A stretch of DNA of 64,000 bases, from assembly GCA_027593235.1 (NCBI GenBank), contig JAQCIU010000010.1, positions 1 through 64,000 on the forward strand. The letters run 5' to 3'. Numbering within the stretch: position 1 is the stretch's first letter; every line of letters starts with the position of its first letter. The stretch comes from Chloroflexota bacterium (GTDB taxonomy: Bacteria; Chloroflexota; Dehalococcoidia; UBA2979). The notes under the pieces are model-generated. The model had not been told where the DNA came from and did no database searches. It saw only the letters and a list, made by a program, of their open reading frames with translations. The position numbers were made by a program, and so were the translations under genes. Shown in pieces: positions 40,372 to 45,941 of this stretch.

Positions 40372-41376
40372 ATGAGCGCCGCCGCCGCGTCGAGCCGCTC
40401 GACGGAGCGTGTGTTCGTCACCAGGATTCTTCCCGGTGAACCGTCGCTCGCGCGCCTCGCGGCGCGCTGCCATGTCGATGTCTGGCCGGATGCCGACCCG
40501 CCCCCCGGTGCCGTGCTGCGCGACCACGCGGCTGGTTCCAGCGCGCTGCTCACGATGATCAACGACGTCGTCGGCGCGTCACTCCTCGATGTCGCGCCAC
40601 GGCTCAAGGTCGTGGCGCAGATGGCCGTCGGCTACGACAACATTGACGTCGACGCGTGCAGCGACCGAGGTGTGCTGGTGACCAACACGCCGGGAGTCCT
40701 AACGGATACAACCGCCGACATGACGTTCGCGCTCCTCATGTCCGCCGCGCGGCGGCTCCCACGCGTCGAGCGCGCCGTCCGCGATGGCGAATGGGGCGAA
40801 TGGAACCCGACCTGGATGCTGGGACACCAGGTGACGGGAGCCACCCTCGGCATCGTCGGGCCCGGGCGCATCGGTCGCGCCGTGGCCGAACGTGCGCGCG
40901 GCTTCGCGATGACCGTGATTTACGCCGGTCACCGGCCGAACGCGGACTTCCCCGGCGAGTACGTGACCTTCCAGGAATTGCTCGCCCGGTCCGATTTCGT
41001 TTCGATCCACGCGCCGCTCACCGCCGAAACCCAGCACCTCTTCGACGACGCGGCGTTCGCCGCGATGCAGCCACACGCGATCCTCGTCAACACCGCACGC
41101 GGCGGGCTCGTCGACCAGTACGCCCTCTGCCGAGCGCTCAAGACGGGTGCGATTGGCGGCGCCGCGCTGGATGTCACCACCCCGGAACCGTTGCCACCTG
41201 ACGATCCGCTATTGTCCGCGCCAAACCTCACGATTGCGCCCCACCTCGGAAGCGCGACACTACAGACGAGGATCGAAATGGCGGAACTCGCGGTGGACGG
41301 CGTCCTGGCCGTGCTCGACGGCATCCGACCGCAACACCTCGTGAATGCCGAAGCCTGGGAGCGTCGCCGCCCGTGA
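40372..41376 (+). CDS. D-2-hydroxyacid dehydrogenase (glyoxylate/hydroxypyruvate reductase)
   Basis: VGYDNID, TNTPGVLT, GPGRIG, NTARG, ALDV..PEP, PHLGSAT. Confidence 0.9.
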   Translation: MSAAAASSRSTERVFVTRILPGEPSLARLAARCHVDVWPDADPPPGAVLRDHAAGSSALLTMINDVVGASLLDVAPRLKVVAQMAVGYDNIDVDACSDRGVLVTNTPGVLTDTTADMTFALLMSAARRLPRVERAVRDGEWGEWNPTWMLGHQVTGATLGIVGPGRIGRAVAERARGFAMTVIYAGHRPNADFPGEYVTFQELLARSDFVSIHAPLTAETQHLFDDAAFAAMQPHAILVNTARGGLVDQYALCRALKTGAIGGAALDVTTPEPLPPDDPLLSAPNLTIAPHLGSATLQTRIEMAELAVDGVLAVLDGIRPQHLVNAEAWERRRP

Positions 41377-42053
41377 ACGAGAAACGTGATCTCAGCCAGC
41401 TGCATGGACGGCTCTGGCTCGCCGAGGCGCTCTGGAAGCTCGGCTCCATCCAGTTCGGCGACTTCAGCCTCGGACGGACCGTCCGCAACTCCCCGGTCCA
41501 CGTCAACGCGAAGCTCCTGATCTCTCGACCGTCCGATCTCCAGCGCACCGCGCAGCTCATCGCGGACGAGCTGCGCATGGGTCAGGCGATGCGCAACCGG
41601 CAGGTCGAGCCGTTCGACAACATCGCCGGGGTGCCGATCGGCGGTCTCCACATCGCCACCGCGCTCTCCCTCGAAACGGGCAACCCGCTGCTGTACGTCC
41701 GCCCGCCGCGGACCGGCAGCGTCGAGCACGCGCCGCACATCGAGGGCATCTACACACCGGGACAAGGCACGGTGATCGTCGACGACCTCGCCGCCGGCGG
41801 TGGGTCGCTCGTCGAAACGGTCGAACGGCTACGCGAGGCCGGTCTGCGCGTCCACGACGCGGTCGTGTTGATCGATCGCGAGCAGGGAGCGGCCGGACGC
41901 CTCGGGATGCTCGGGGTCAGCCTGCATTCGGTGCTGACCCTGGATGTTGTCCTCCAATACCTCCACTCGGCGGGACACGTGGACGACGAGGACTACGAGC
42001 GCTCACGGCTCTACCTTGGTCGTGAGGGACAGGTCCGCTCCGAATTCGACTAG
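41373..42053 (+). CDS. pyrE: Orotate phosphoribosyltransferase-like protein
   Basis: QFGDFSL, IAGVP.GG, PRPP loop VIVDDLAAGGGS, LIDREQG. Confidence 0.72.
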   Translation: MNEKRDLSQLHGRLWLAEALWKLGSIQFGDFSLGRTVRNSPVHVNAKLLISRPSDLQRTAQLIADELRMGQAMRNRQVEPFDNIAGVPIGGLHIATALSLETGNPLLYVRPPRTGSVEHAPHIEGIYTPGQGTVIVDDLAAGGGSLVETVERLREAGLRVHDAVVLIDREQGAAGRLGMLGVSLHSVLTLDVVLQYLHSAGHVDDEDYERSRLYLGREGQVRSEFD

Positions 42054-42297
42054 CGCGCCGGACCACGCCTCTTACGATTCACCCCGGCGATCCCCGCCTG
42101 ATCGGCACCTGACATCGCCCGAACCGCCGGGGATCCTCGCGGGTGGCCTCGGTGACCGCTCGAGACTGCAGCGCTTATTCCTCTCCGCCGCTGCGCCGAT
42201 TCTTACCGGTCCTGCCGTAGCACCGCGCTGCTCGCGGCAATTCCTCTAGCAACGAAGGAGCGAGCGGCGCCGACAGCGACGCCAGGAGGAGACCACG

Positions 42298-43129
42298 ATG
42301 TGGGGAGTGCTGATCGGTACCGCGGCTGCGCATAAGGCCGCCGCGGTTGGCGTCGGATTGTCGGTGATACTTGGCACGGCAGGGACCGCCGAGGTCACCG
42401 GCATCGGCCCAACCGTTCGAGACATCGTCCGGCATGAGGCCGTGCAGGAGAGCGCGTCAGACGCGATCGACGAAGGCGTCACCCGCGAGGACGAATCAGC
42501 GCTCGCCATGCTGGACGAGGACGAGAGCACGATCTCCGAGTTGGCGCTCGAATCCGAAGCCACGAGCGAGGACGAGAGCGCCCTGGATGAGGACGGGGAA
42601 CGGGAGCACTTCGCGCTGGCGGCCGAGGACGGTCCCGGGAACCTAGTGTGGCATCTGAAGGACGGCGTCTTCCACCTCCGCGGCACCTTGATCGATGCAG
42701 GCGACGGGCTCGCGATCCGAACTGCAGGACCTGACGGGGAAGTGCTCGACCTGCTCGTGGATGAGGACTCTGTCGATCTCAGGATCCCCGGTGGTCACGC
42801 GAAGGACGGTGATATCGCGCTCGATGACTACCTGGGCGCGATGGTTCGCGCGACCGGAACCTGCGTCGCATCCACCGACGCCGAGGCCGCCCCGGATTGC
42901 ACGGTAGAGACGCTGCGAATCCTCGGAAACGCCGGGCGGAACGATGCTGGCGGACGACTCGTCGATCGACGAGTCGTCCGCCAGCATCGATGAGCACGAG
43001 TCGGTCGACGGTGAGGACGGCGAGGACCTCGATGACGAGGACGGCGAGAAGGACGGTGGACACGGACAAGGTCACGGTAAGCCCGACCACGCCGGTGGAC
43101 CGCGATCGCACGACGAGTCGGATGACTAA
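42298..43129 (+). pseudogene. Exported paralog of the anti-sigma-like protein, apparently frameshifted at ~42942-42989 (ORF 42298-42993, tail in +1 frame to 43129)
   Basis: Aligns to 43990-44952 (AAAHKA...GTAEVxGIGPxVRD; PGNL...FxLRG; C..C.V....LGNAG); the acidic/HGKP tail lies in another frame; may be an assembly artefact. Confidence 0.55.
42942..42989. repeat. Perfect 48-bp loopless palindrome
   Basis: CGATGCTGGCGGACGACTCGTCGA|TCGACGAGTCGTCCGCCAGCATCG. Confidence 0.95.
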
Positions 43130-43157
43130 GAGCCCCCCGCACGCCCGCGGTCTGACC

Positions 43158-43201
43158 GAGCAGCATCAGGGCCGGTAACGTTGCCGGCCTCGATGCTGCT
43201 C
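43158..43201 (+). terminator. Long imperfect hairpin, candidate terminator
   Basis: GAGCAGCATC-AGGGCCGGTAAC|GTTGCCGGCCTC-GATGCTGCTC. Confidence 0.45.
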
Positions 43202-43297
43202 CTCTGCGATCCCCCGAACGGGGACGATTTGACCTGGCATCGAGGGGCGCCCCGGTCGCGGGATTCGACGGTCGACCGATGATCCTTGAGAACCAGG

Positions 43298-43324
43298 CGT
43301 CACAAACCGAGACATCACGGCAAT
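43298..43324 (+). promoter_or_regulatory. Putative ECF promoter, copy 1
   Basis: CGTCACAAAC-N12-GCAAT before the sigma gene; same motif and spacing at 43897. Confidence 0.6.
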
Positions 43325-43349
43325 GCCCGATCTGAGCGCCGGCGAGAGG

Positions 43350-43877
43350 ATGGCAGTCAACCGCGTGGATCCGCACGCCCGTCAGACCGTGGAGCGTGCC
43401 CGCGCCGGCGACGAGGCCGCCTGGCGGGAACTCTTCGACGAGCATTACCCCCGGCTCTTCAAGTTCTTTCGCAGTCGCGTCGATTCCGACGCAACGGCGG
43501 AGTACCTGGCGGCGGAGACCTTCACCGAGGCCGTGCGTGGCCTCCCGCGCTTCCGCTGGCGAGACCGCCCCTTCGGTGCCTGGTTGTTCGGAATCGCGCG
43601 CAATCGCTTGAGGATGCACTACCGCTCGCGCCGCGTTCATGCCGAATTGCCTGAGGAAATCGGCTATGCGCGCGATGACTACCTGGAGATAGACATCCGC
43701 GACGCGCTGGAGCGGATCGAACCGGATCACCGGCTGGCGATTGAACTGCGATACCTCCTGGGATTGAGCGGCGAGGAGGCCGCTGCAGCGATGGGCCGTT
43801 CCCACGGCGCGTTTCGCGCCCTGCTCCACCGGGCGACAGCCGCCTTCAAGCGGGAGTACGGGAGTCCGTCACCGTGA
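43350..43877 (+). CDS. ECF sigma-70 factor
   Basis: RARAGDEAAWRELFDEHY, region 2 F.AWLFGIARN, region 4 LS.EEAAAAMGRS.GA.R..LHRA; GAGAGG RBS before ATG 43350. Confidence 0.93.
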   Translation: MAVNRVDPHARQTVERARAGDEAAWRELFDEHYPRLFKFFRSRVDSDATAEYLAAETFTEAVRGLPRFRWRDRPFGAWLFGIARNRLRMHYRSRRVHAELPEEIGYARDDYLEIDIRDALERIEPDHRLAIELRYLLGLSGEEAAAAMGRSHGAFRALLHRATAAFKREYGSPSP

Positions 43878-43896
43878 CCCGGCTCATCACAGGGCC

Positions 43897-43923
43897 CGTC
43901 ACAAACGGGCCAGTGCCTGCAAT
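43897..43923 (+). promoter_or_regulatory. Putative ECF promoter, copy 2
   Basis: CGTCACAAAC-N12-GCAAT between the sigma and anti-sigma genes. Confidence 0.6.
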
Positions 43924-43989
43924 TCCATGGTTAGAGACCGACCCGAGCAACCGCGTCGCAGCCGGTGGCGTGCGTAAACGAGATGTCCG

Positions 43990-44952
43990 ATGATCCGCAT
44001 CCGATTCTGGCGGCAGCCACAGCCCGAAGCCCTGGACCCGGAGATCCTGGCGGTGTTCGAGCAGCACGCGCACGCGCCGATCCTCCACGAGGCGCGCATC
44101 ACGGCCGTACGTGCGCGCGTCGCGATGCAGCTCGAACGGGAGGCGCCCCGCGGCGCTGGCCTGCGACAACGCCTCGCGTACGCGGCGGTCGGCGGGGGTG
44201 GCCTCTGGGGTACCGCGATCGGCGTCGCGGCGGCCCACAAGGCCGTCGTGGTGGCAGCCGGCGTCGGCCTGCTGTTAGCCGGCGGCACGGCAGCCGAGGT
44301 GTCCGGCATCGGTCCCGCCGTACGTGATGCCGTGCGGGCACCGCAGGCGACGACGCCCCATCCAACGCAGTCAGCGATCGATCCAACATCGTCCCCGACC
44401 GCGACGGCAGTCGCCGCGGTGGTCGCGTCCAGCGCAACGCCACGACCGGGGAACGGCGCCACGGTGACCGATGCACCTGAGGACGTTCCGGGAAACCTGT
44501 CTACACACGTCAATTCCAAGGGCGAGTTCACGTTGCGCGGGGTACTGGTCGCCGTCGGCCCCGGAACGATCGACGTCCAGACGAGCGTCGACGACGTGCC
44601 AATCCGGTTCCTGCTGGGCGACGCCCGCGTGAAGATCCCGGGGAACGCGACGAGTGGCCTCGATGCATACGTCGGTCACCTCCTGGTGGTGAGCGGGCAA
44701 TGCGAGACGATCGGCGGGCAACTGACCGAGGACTGCGACGTCGATTCGGTCACGGTGCTGGGCAACGCCGGGCAGAGCAATTCTGGTCAGGGGAACCTGA
44801 ATCAGAGCAATCCCGCAGCAACCGGCACCGCAGAGGCCGAGCCCAGCGCGACGCCGAACGCGCCGGGACAGTCGGGCCAGCATGGCAAGCCGGAAGACCC
44901 CGGTGCGTCGGAACACGCCGGCAAACCCGACGACGAGTCCTCCGAGGACTAG
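43990..44952 (+). CDS. Putative transmembrane anti-sigma factor with an extracytoplasmic beta domain
   Basis: Directly after the ECF; short cytoplasmic N-terminus, TM, Pro/Thr linker, beta-rich domain with a Cys pair, HGKP-containing acidic tail. Confidence 0.65.
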   Translation: MIRIRFWRQPQPEALDPEILAVFEQHAHAPILHEARITAVRARVAMQLEREAPRGAGLRQRLAYAAVGGGGLWGTAIGVAAAHKAVVVAAGVGLLLAGGTAAEVSGIGPAVRDAVRAPQATTPHPTQSAIDPTSSPTATAVAAVVASSATPRPGNGATVTDAPEDVPGNLSTHVNSKGEFTLRGVLVAVGPGTIDVQTSVDDVPIRFLLGDARVKIPGNATSGLDAYVGHLLVVSGQCETIGGQLTEDCDVDSVTVLGNAGQSNSGQGNLNQSNPAATGTAEAEPSATPNAPGQSGQHGKPEDPGASEHAGKPDDESSED

Positions 44953-45040
44953 GCGCGAATCGTCACCCGAGCCGTATCAAACAGCGGCACCACGGCAATA
45001 CCAGAGACGGGGGCAAGGATGGCTGCCCACCTCAATGCGG

Positions 45041-45075
45041 GACCCCCGGCTTCACGGCCGGGGGTCTTGTCGTTT
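45041..45075 (+). terminator. Intrinsic terminator
   Basis: gacccccggc-ttcacg-gccgggggtc followed by ttgtcgttt. Confidence 0.7.
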
Positions 45076-45158
45076 CCAGCCACATCGGGCGTCGCTGAGC
45101 CTCGGCGGACCGGGACGCGAGGGCCGGAGCGCGCTACGCTGCGGCCCGGAGGTCGCCC

Positions 45159-45941
45159 ATGGATGAGCTGATTGCCGATCTGGTCGCAGAGCAGGACTAC
45201 CTGGACGCCGCGATCCGCGACGCGCCCGAGGCGCGCTGGAATGCTCCGTCGCCCGCCGACGGCTGGCTGATGCGCGACTGCGTCGCCCACCTCGCCGAAC
45301 TCGATCGCACTGCCGCCATCATCGCCGAGACCGGCGCCTATCCGGACGGCGATCGACGCCCCGGCGACGGTGTCGTAACAGCCGGACAGCTCGACGCGCG
45401 AAGGCTTTCGATCGCGGAGTTGCTGTCCTTCTGGCGCGAGTCGCGCGCTCGCCTCGCCACAGCGCTGAAGCCGCTCGACGGACGGGACCGGCTGCCGTGG
45501 GCCGGCAACACGATGAGCGTGCGTTCCTTCACCACGGCCCGACTGATGGAAGCGTGGTCGCACGGGTTGGACGCGATCGAGAGCGCGGGAGTGACCCCGG
45601 TCGATAGCGACCGCCTGCGCAACATTGCCCACATTGGCTACGCCACCCGCGACTTCGCCTACCGAAACCGCGGTCTCGAACCGAGCGCCGAGGCCCTCCG
45701 CGTGGAGCTGACGGCACCCTCCGGCGCGATATGGTCCTGGGGACCGGATGACGCGACAGCGCGCGTCACCGGAACCGCCGGCGACTTCTGCCGCGTCGTC
45801 ACCCAGCGCATCCACTACACCGATACCGGTCTGGAATACACGCCGGGCGCGGCGGAGGAGTATCTGCAGATCGCGCAGGCCTTCGCCGGACCGACCGGCG
45901 CGGGGCGCCCGCCTTCCGGCACGCCCGAGGGCGCGCGCTAG
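45159..45941 (+). CDS. MDMPI/DinB-superfamily protein (TIGR03084-like)
   Basis: PSPADGW..RD.VAHLA, TARLMEAWSHG.D, DFCRVVTQR, AQAFAGPTG.GR. Confidence 0.85.
   Translation: MDELIADLVAEQDYLDAAIRDAPEARWNAPSPADGWLMRDCVAHLAELDRTAAIIAETGAYPDGDRRPGDGVVTAGQLDARRLSIAELLSFWRESRARLATALKPLDGRDRLPWAGNTMSVRSFTTARLMEAWSHGLDAIESAGVTPVDSDRLRNIAHIGYATRDFAYRNRGLEPSAEALRVELTAPSGAIWSWGPDDATARVTGTAGDFCRVVTQRIHYTDTGLEYTPGAAEEYLQIAQAFAGPTGAGRPPSGTPEGAR

Follow-up and report, generated by a model that had tools for sequence, protein, structure and literature searches.

Why would a locus that encodes a sigma factor of the extracytoplasmic function (ECF) type and its anti-sigma factor also encode a second copy of the anti-sigma factor that begins only at the membrane segment? 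Pairs of ECF sigma and anti-sigma factors are a major mode of bacterial signalling, and their feedback is known mostly as sigma autoregulation together with coexpression of the anti-sigma factor. The locus in question lies in a 64,000-nucleotide stretch of Chloroflexota bacterium DNA (Dehalococcoidia, UBA2979; GenBank assembly GCA_027593235.1, contig JAQCIU010000010.1, positions 1 to 64,000 of the forward strand), which is referred to here as the window and from whose first letter positions are counted. The genome of the window (G000) is a 3.39-Mb assembly of 78 contigs with a completeness of 89.7%. Loci are given L-numbers, with L011 belonging to genome G001, L012 to G023, and L004 to G024, and the others include metagenome contigs. 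An initial annotation, made from the sequence alone, described a three-gene ECF unit of sigma factor, anti-sigma factor, and headless anti-sigma paralog, and this unit is borne out here, with the trio kept within a clade. It is well supported that the paralog encoded from 42298 is a long-conserved protein under purifying selection, which has kept the transmembrane (TM), post-TM, and oligonucleotide/oligosaccharide-binding (OB)-like parts of the anti-sigma factor and is without its sigma-binding head.

The paralog and the anti-sigma-like protein (BLASTP E value of 7e-15, with 58 identities in 190 positions) are the only two copies of their family in the assembly. In an alignment of 13 family members, the position of Met1 of the paralog precedes by one residue that of Trp73, an invariant residue of the anti-sigma-like protein, at the start of an Ala/Gly/Val-rich hydrophobic segment, as expected from the initial annotation, which had the paralog begin at the TM region. 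The start at 42298 is supported by an in-frame TAG at 42247 to 42249 and an AGGAGG at 42283 to 42288, 9 nt upstream. The paralog starts with a juxtamembrane/TM segment and the AEVTGIGPTVRD motif, after which come an acidic linker and an OB-like domain at about residues 113 to 213. As assembled, its open reading frame (ORF) finishes in an out-of-frame basic tail of 18 residues. Both proteins share a conserved post-TM motif, AE(V/M/I)(T/S)GIGPxVR(D/E). The linkers are acidic in the paralog (24 Asp/Glu in 68 residues) and Pro/Thr/Ala-rich in the anti-sigma-like protein (4 in 53). The His-Lys pair of the membrane segment had been singled out as unusually conserved, but its His is not conserved, the residue being His in 9 and Asn in 4 of the 13 aligned sequences and Ser or Gln in further loci. 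The Lys is present in 11 of the 13 and is probably not buried in the membrane but a marker of where the TM core borders on the cytoplasm.

Comparison of the paralog with seven orthologues gave ratios of nonsynonymous to synonymous substitution rates (dN/dS) of 0.12 to 0.24 for the TM segment and motif, 0.18 to 0.34 for the OB-like domain, and 0.16 to 0.97 for the linker, which are rough figures because dS is near saturation and one linker value is undefined. All seven orthologues have an uninterrupted ORF of 243 to 293 aa, and six of them carry a (H/R)GKPxH..GP tail.

The 43323 to 43877 product is an ECF (group IV) sigma-70 factor, with regions 2 and 4, no region 3, and a length of 184 aa, within the 170 to 200 aa characteristic of such factors. 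Its domains match Pfam Sigma70_r2 (PF04542; 2.6e-13), Sigma70_r4_2 (PF08281; 8.7e-10), and PF07638 (3e-06), and it scores 67.3 bits against TIGR02937 (cutoff, 42.9). The top specific NCBIfam model is the BldN family TIGR02952 (95.6 bits, below the cutoff of 206.45), followed by ShbA (68 bits, far below the cutoff of 209). By these cutoffs, the sigma factor is a relative of the BldN and ShbA groups and not a member of them. The nearest solved chain is 6dxo_A (E value of 3.3e-24), which is labelled an ECF-subfamily sigma factor and belongs to a structure that we take to be the RsbN-BldN complex. Only about 20 residues precede region 2, compared with the 30- to 130-aa pro-extension of BldN and ECF121, and the Dehalococcoidia host lies outside the actinobacterial descriptor of ECF121. 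Chloroflexi, DUF5666, and a GCAAT motif are all absent from the main text of the ECF classification paper; as its supplement was available in part, a matching group could have been missed.

The 43990 to 44952 product is the probable single-pass anti-sigma factor of this sigma factor, with a predicted N-terminal clamp on regions 2 and 4. Its helical N-terminus is followed by a hydrophobic segment at about residues 72 to 101 (19-residue Kyte-Doolittle maximum of 1.95) and the AEVSGIGPAVRD motif; then come a flexible Pro/Thr/Ala linker, an OB-like domain at residues 168 to 262, and a Pro/Gly/acidic tail. The AlphaFold2 (AF2) model built from the 13-sequence alignment contains N-terminal helices at residues 17 to 26, 34 to 51, and 58 to 68 with moderate predicted local distance difference test (pLDDT) values. 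A complex was predicted between the sigma factor (13-row alignment) and anti-sigma residues 1 to 72 (10 rows), together with three controls. The interface score ipSAE was 0.66 (0.66, 0.63, and 0.73 in separate runs) versus 0.02 for the best control, and the runs shared at least 67% of contacts, with a partner pLDDT of at least 64; the pass mark used is attained by 58 of 80 solved complexes and by 2 of 110 mismatched pairs. In the predicted interface, anti-sigma residues 13 to 51 lie against sigma residues 35 to 72 (region 2) and 120 to 179 (region 4). The N-terminus is thereby predicted to bind the sigma factor, and this in silico support backs the binding without proving it.

As to its class, the anti-sigma factor matches no Pfam anti-sigma model (zf-HC2, RskA, and others) and has no Cys in residues 1 to 72, which sets it apart from class I anti-sigma factors and from the zinc-binding (ZAS) ones with their HxxxCxxC motif. 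Class III (RsbN-like) factors are recognized by three helices, a long one of which is held between sigma2 and sigma4, with the first helices docking on sigma4. No Pfam (E ≤ 0.1) or NCBIfam model matched the anti-sigma factor or the paralog, the 13 family members gave none even at E ≤ 10, and a feature search of the ESM Atlas returned no usable match. The sigma gene adjoins the anti-sigma gene in all 15 sigma-bearing loci examined. In G024 (L004), the two homologues are divergently oriented, not in tandem.

The outer domain of both proteins is confidently modelled as an OB-like barrel, a fold defined as a closed barrel of five beta-strands, the third and fourth of which have a helix between them. 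The barrel of the anti-sigma factor (residues 168 to 262) has a pLDDT of about 90 in its AF2 model, and that of the paralog (model of residues 1 to 214) has strands within residues 117 to 211 with pLDDT values of about 70 to 92 and the same strand order. Foldseek and VIA-align searches with the anti-sigma barrel retrieved OB folds only, all of them weak matches, with a best Foldseek E value of 0.013 and a best VIA-align Z score of 6.6 (root mean square deviation of 3.0 over 67 residues); 39 chains had Z scores of at least 5, and none reached 8. The initial annotation had suggested an OB fold or DUF5666, and these searches favor the former, weak as the matches are, whereas none of the 13 members matched DUF5666, even with the limit relaxed to E ≤ 10. 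The beta domain with two Cys that it had described as shared is indeed common to both proteins and conserved, C238 and C249 being invariant in the anti-sigma factor, and the spacing is C-x10-C in the anti-sigma factor and C-x11-C in the paralog rather than C-x8/10-DC. Two unusual forms of the domain were also observed. P0053 is a 995-aa protein in which the shared-domain profile matched 11 separate stretches, an apparent multirepeat OB-like form. Genomes G014 and G041 (L009, 250 to 2049; L026) contain a second sigma/anti-sigma pair of the family, in which the anti-sigma factor is very long (about 600 aa of open frame) and its OB-like domain is split by large insertions of acidic, low-complexity sequence.

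The genes of the trio are linked by a promoter-like motif, CGT(C/A)AC-N15/16-GCAAT. A scan of both strands of the genome (6.8 Mb) with the pattern CGTNNCA-N12-16-GCAAT found 18 occurrences, four of which fall within 2.8 kb at this locus, all of them intergenic and on the coding strand (sites 1 to 4, Table 1). This motif, with the promoter geometry of BldN and ShbA, is new here. A position weight matrix (PWM) was trained on 16 sites from other genomes only, these training sites having themselves been chosen by regular expression, and it ranked site 3 first in the genome (27.5 bits), site 2 second (26.1 bits), and site 4 third (25.7 bits), the next match scoring 21.5 bits. Three of the lower matches, at C32:92694, C67:16955, and C30:112249, lie apparently within coding regions. 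A scan for sigma-70-type promoters found 0 sites.

The sites are conserved in position and geometry, the spacing being 15 to 16 nt at all of them. All four are kept in G001 and L030, and subsets are kept in L028, L031/L034, L012/L005, L038, L029, and L033. The site 1 motif occurs at the same place in L011 (G001), L028, L029, L030, L031, and L033. It is found there too in L032, L036, and L037, which have upstream DNA identical to that of L031, L028, and L029. Site 3 is kept in L011, L028, L030, L012/L005, and L038, and site 4 in L011 and L030. Of 15 loci, 8 have the motif upstream of the sigma gene, and among these are distant ones, in which sigma identity is 57 to 63%. The −35 hexamer and spacer agree with published promoters of BldN (CGTAAC-N16-CGTTGA; PMC2375139) and ShbA (CGTAAC-N16-CGATGA, alongside GTAAC-N17-18-CGAT for SigD; PMC12019637), and rsbN, the anti-sigma gene beside bldN, is a direct BldN target (PMC6101532). 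From this enrichment, conservation, BldN/ShbA geometry, and movement of the motif with the sigma gene, the four sites are therefore read as the sigma factor's own putative promoters, which is probable for sites 2 to 4 and only slightly favored for site 1.

Further conserved blocks accompany the sites. A GATTCTTAC block (42199 to 42207) lies just 5' of site 1 in all loci with upstream DNA, and a conserved CCGAYRATC block (43276 to 43284) lies 5' of site 2 before the sigma gene; both may be UP-like elements or sites of a second regulator. The Shine-Dalgarno (SD) sequence and upstream motif blocks of the paralog are likewise conserved in all loci with upstream DNA. An alternative parsing with CGT as the −10 element and GATTCTTAC/CCGAYRATC as the −35 element was rejected, since its spacing is 8 to 18 nt and site dependent, whereas that of CGTNNC-N15/16-GCAAT is constant and agrees with the geometry published for BldN and ShbA. 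In G001 (L011, 5322 to 5340) and L031 (3718 to 3735), the site 2 hexamer is followed after exactly 7 nt by an ATG or GTG, which suggests a leaderless sigma mRNA; the corresponding codon in G000 is CTG. L030 has a 12-nt tandem duplication at the sigma start region.

The family is sparsely distributed, and its trio recurs within a clade. A word-index protein search retrieved only 11 members, and a profile search of 1.84 billion cluster representatives retrieved 62 at E ≤ 1e-3, 57 of which were at E ≤ 1e-10. Among 51 representatives that cover the shared region almost fully, 15 are headless, starting at profile positions 1 to 5 (MW.. or ML..W). In a maximum-likelihood tree, the headless label takes eight changes, at least six of which are forced by well-supported branches. 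Five headless forms, including that of the window, make up an acidic-linker clade with 100/100 support. The ten others (P0010, P0021, P0028, P0029, P0033, P0036, P0040, P0042, P0045, and P0048) are nested among full-length clades and may be independent headless genes or truncated gene calls. A single-protein query found the family in 6 of 41 relative genomes, and a profile found it in 10 of 99 genomes that belong to the taxonomic family of G000. In a class-wide sample of 401 genomes, it was found in G000 only (0 of the 400 others). Among the 10 family-bearing genomes of the 99, only G000 and its congener G001 have a headless copy. The gene order in G001 is identical to that in the window, namely dehydrogenase, phosphoribosyltransferase (PRTase), paralog, sigma, anti-sigma, and TIGR03084 genes. 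A metagenome scan with a seven-sequence alignment of the acidic clade as the query gave 15 loci, and sigma and anti-sigma genes follow the paralog in all four with at least 700 nt downstream (L028, L030, L031, and L034), so that conservation of the trio, proposed as a check on the initial annotation, was found in G001 and in every adequate metagenome locus. The PRTase gene lies 5' of the paralog in G001 and six metagenome loci (L028, L029, L030, L031, L036, and L037), and the TIGR03084 gene adjoins the anti-sigma gene in L003/L011, L005/L012, L028, L030, and L035. The locus as a whole suggests an ECF signalling module that is self-contained and belongs to one family of Dehalococcoidia. Two individual loci differ in detail. 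In G023 (L012, 1100 to 1660), which is without the paralog, a 186-aa ORF that appears GNAT-like by eye lies between the PRTase and sigma genes, and in L028 (2128 to 3688), the sigma and anti-sigma genes align piecewise in different frames, perhaps owing to frameshifts or assembly errors.

In the genome of the window, the end of the paralog gene is altered. The 42298 frame stops at 42991 to 42993, and the His/acidic tail sits in the +1 frame, so that the acidic HGKP tails ascribed by the initial annotation to both proteins are in frame in paralog orthologues but out of frame in the ORF of this genome. The shift falls within a perfect palindrome of 48 nt (42942 to 42989), which is the longest in the genome (the runner-up has 32 nt) and which as RNA has a predicted stability of −56.2 kcal/mol (z score of −6.47, with 0 of 200 shuffles as stable). 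Contigs from public-read runs X1, X2, and X3, which may be source samples and are thus not independent, end at 42971 and restart at 42960 to 42978, and none of these bridges the palindrome center, a break pattern such as a real palindrome would give in a 31-mer graph. An assembly artefact was judged unlikely, since independent k-mer contigs break as a real palindrome predicts, though the center is unbridged by them. An inserted element was also rejected, as the DNA alignment with G001 shows no clean 46- to 48-nt insertion, and Rfam searches with the palindrome gave spurious hairpin matches only. Bridging contigs were found as a minor form in X3 and as the sole form in X4, which comes from another study and a diverged strain. 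The bridging allele has four substitutions, all in the left arm, and two extra bases behind 42949, which bring the tail into frame. Quasi-palindromes can be corrected by template switching, a mutation mechanism that perfects an imperfect repeat. Because all differences lie in one arm and jointly perfect the repeat, the G000 allele looks like such a template-switch mutation caught as a polymorphism. It removes only the disordered tail and leaves the TM and OB parts intact.

A mechanism can be proposed from these features. The sigma factor would recognize CGT(C/A)AC-N15/16-GCAAT, as the motif suggests, and would transcribe from the four sites its own gene, the anti-sigma gene, the paralog gene (from a weaker variant site), and a short terminator-bounded RNA. 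The paralog would insert N-in/C-out like the anti-sigma factor. Unable to hold the sigma factor yet possessing all the membrane- and outside-facing parts of the anti-sigma factor, it would compete for a ligand, for a site-1 or intramembrane protease, or for the anti-sigma dimer interface, because it shares the TM flank, post-TM motif, and OB-like domain. Negative feedback or buffering would result because the sigma factor would induce the paralog. That the paralog is such a sigma-induced competitor or decoy is a plausible if tentative reading of the sequences. A stricter version, in which the four promoters form a closed circuit whose targets are only the sigma factor, the anti-sigma factor, the headless copy, and an RNA of about 70 nt, with the headless copy as a decoy or protease substrate that sets the threshold and ends the response, is rather doubtful.

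Several observations weigh against the competitor reading. The initial annotation had the sigma factor induce the paralog, and a promoter-like motif does stand before the paralog gene as it does before the sigma and anti-sigma genes, which supports that idea indirectly, but the paralog copy is the weakest and most divergent, with a PWM score of only 16.8 bits (rank 17) and a −35 element that departs from CGT(C/A)AC; coregulation thus appears least secure at the very gene where the hypothesis needs it. At site 2, the −10-like hexamer overlaps the annotated sigma ATG (within 43320 to 43334), so that either the apparent start codon or the apparent start site is misleading. Membrane insertion of the paralog is predicted from a borderline hydropathy (19-residue Kyte-Doolittle maximum of 1.52). 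The predicted sigma/anti-sigma complex may owe its pass to likeness with solved sigma/anti-sigma complexes such as 6DXO, and a profile search of Protein Data Bank sequences with the anti-sigma N-terminus gave 0 matches at E ≤ 10. The same-genus genomes G002 and G003 show no copy of the family at all (86% and 90% complete), and the frameshifted G000 paralog may be impaired.

Another explanation makes the paralog an output of the regulon, an envelope protein that would bind or buffer an extracytoplasmic molecule sensed by the anti-sigma OB-like domain, such as a cation or an envelope component. The strict motif occurs essentially only at this locus, which leaves the module without other obvious target genes; the linker of the paralog is far more acidic than that of the anti-sigma factor; and the periplasmic OB-like metal and heme chaperones CusF, SilF, and CcmE are among the fold matches (Z scores of 5.0 to 5.5). 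Those matches, however, are generic for OB folds and weak, as described above, and the TM/post-TM segment common to both proteins is the most conserved part, which fits a shared membrane partner better than a ligand sink, so that this explanation is unlikely. Accessory proteins act in other ECF systems, and by analogy the paralog could be an obligate partner of the anti-sigma factor in a hetero-oligomeric sensor, joined through the TM and OB-like parts, that keeps the sigma factor off or receives the signal and does not compete. The invariant TM flank and post-TM motif (W, G, AE..G.GP.V), the OB-like domain common to both proteins, and the strictly kept gene order within the clade would suit such a partner, but most family members do without a paralog, the headless copy being confined to G000 and G001 among the genomes compared, and the frameshifted G000 allele persists at 8 to 26x word depth in three runs. 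An obligate partnership is, on this evidence, also improbable.

The repeated motif could instead serve another regulator or act at the RNA level, in which case the three genes would not form one regulon. The conserved blocks that lie upstream of sites 1 and 2 and are specific to each (GATTCTTAC and CCGAYRATC, respectively) and the overlap of the site 2 hexamer with the sigma ATG are compatible with this, whereas the −35 element and 16-nt spacer match the promoters of the closest characterized relatives of the sigma factor, the motif accompanies the sigma gene across distant loci, and the spacing is fixed at 15 to 16 nt at all sites, which makes it quite unlikely that the motif is not the sigma factor's promoter. 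That the paralog is a decaying, functionless partial duplicate with a relic motif upstream is very improbable, since the frameshift at 42942 to 42989 and a promoter-like site scoring within the genome background are set against seven of seven orthologues intact at or near dS saturation with dN/dS values of 0.12 to 0.34 in the TM and OB-like parts, conserved SD and upstream blocks, and an in-frame allele that coexists in X3 and is the sole form in X4, the frameshift costing only the disordered tail.

Downstream of the anti-sigma gene, site 4 is followed by a conserved stretch of about 70 nt with a 5' hairpin and a terminator, an arrangement found in the window (44973 to 45077), L011 (7012 to 7120), and L030 (7572 to 7685). 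The terminator that the initial annotation had placed at the end of the locus is present as a terminator-like hairpin with a T-rich tail. RNAalifold analysis of three sequences gave 25 pairs, 5 of which have compensatory changes, and the stretch matched no Rfam family. A small ORF at 45019 to 45171 was discarded, as its ATG is not kept and is ACG in G001. The stretch may encode a putative sigma-dependent small RNA or may merely be the 3' end of the operon. The features of the locus and its neighboring genes are listed in Table 1.

Table 1. Features of the ECF locus and its surroundings (positions in the window; aa, amino acids)
Feature	Position	Strand	Remarks
2-Hydroxyacid-dehydrogenase-like gene	40372–41376	+	
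PRTase gene (orotate PRTase-like)	41373–42053	+	Pfam Pribosyltran, 2.1e-08; NCBIfam orotate PRTase matches under cutoff
Promoter-like site 1, CGTAGC-N15-GCAATT	42216–42242	+	56 nt before paralog start
Headless paralog ORF as assembled, 231 aa	42298–42993	+	BLASTP paralogy to the 43990–44952 product
Perfect zero-spacer palindrome, 48 nt	42942–42989	.	At the frameshift point of the paralog
+1-frame continuation with acidic/His tail (..GHGKPDHAGGP..)	42944–43129	+	23 Asp/Glu in 61 residues
Inverted repeat 3' of paralog tail, 22-nt arms	43158–43201	+	Arms 86% complementary; possible terminator without T-run
Promoter-like site 2, CGTCAC-N16-GCAATG	43298–43325	+	Before sigma gene; hexamer overlaps annotated sigma ATG
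ECF sigma gene, 184 aa from annotated ATG	43323–43877	+	Annotated start may not be the true start
Promoter-like site 3, CGTCAC-N16-GCAATT	43897–43924	+	Within the 112-nt sigma/anti-sigma gap
Anti-sigma-like protein gene, 320 aa	43990–44952	+	
Promoter-like site 4, CGTATC-N16-GCAATA	44973–45000	+	20 nt past anti-sigma stop codon
Conserved stretch of about 70 nt	45007–45077	+	5' hairpin, GC-rich terminator hairpin (45041–45066), T-rich tail
TIGR03084-family DinB/MDMPI-like metal-binding protein gene	45159–45941	+	NCBIfam TIGR03084, 268.9 bits (cutoff, 247.95); Pfam MDMPI_N, 2.2e-21

If the competitor reading is true, a conserved copy of an anti-sigma factor with the membrane and sensor parts only would add a new layer to ECF signalling, namely titration outside the membrane. 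A closed-circuit decoy, if true, would amount to a principle of feedback that the literature found does not describe for ECF systems, and the recurring headless forms (15 of 51 representatives) would point to a general design of the protein family. The module is small, with three proteins, one motif, and apparently no other targets, and could be rebuilt in Escherichia coli as an orthogonal switch. For an uncultured, high-GC family of Dehalococcoidia, the locus opens a first way into its signalling, and it also defines a family of proteins that is unnamed.

The outer domain has its nearest structural counterparts in the extracytoplasmic OB-fold proteins YgiW/BOF, CusF/SilF, CcmE, and YobA, which have the same general five-stranded barrel (Foldseek E values of 0.013 to 0.08; VIA-align Z scores of 5.0 to 5.5). 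These matches are weak, and cytoplasmic OB folds (SSB, RPA, and N-domains of aminoacyl-tRNA synthetases) match at least as well; no sequence family matches, and the Cys pair is peculiar to the anti-sigma/paralog family. As a system, the locus is nearest to BldN/RsbN of Streptomyces (ECF121), in which RsbN is the founding class III anti-sigma factor. In both, the anti-sigma factor is encoded at +1, is single pass, and has a short all-helical cytoplasmic domain (here predicted) unlike class I anti-sigma domains. The anti-sigma gene has its own sigma-dependent promoter in BldN/RsbN, according to PMC6101532 and PMC7826278, as promoter-like site 3 may be here. The differences lie in the −10 element, which is GCAAT in the locus and CGTTGA for BldN, the −35 element and spacer being alike (PMC2375139), and in the anti-sigma N-terminus, which is about 70 aa in the locus and 117 aa in RsbN. 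According to PMC7826278, ECF121 is 100% actinobacterial with N-terminal pro-extensions, and BldN is reported not to be autoregulated. The parts of the BldN/RsbN literature at hand describe no headless paralog of RsbN. Sigma-ShbA/SigD (ECF40) has the −35 element and spacer of the locus with a different −10 element, and ShbA controls very few genes, its own among them (PMC12019637), as the sigma factor of the locus would do. Unlike the locus, ShbA is without an anti-sigma factor in its gene context. A literature search turned up no account of headless anti-sigma paralogs or of extracytoplasmic decoys. Decoy by mimicry is the basis of the PhyR/NepR/EcfG partner switch, in which a sigma-like domain titrates the anti-sigma factor in the cytoplasm. 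The locus shares no homology with that switch and is conceptually alike, with the difference that the putative decoy would here mimic the membrane and outer parts of the anti-sigma factor.

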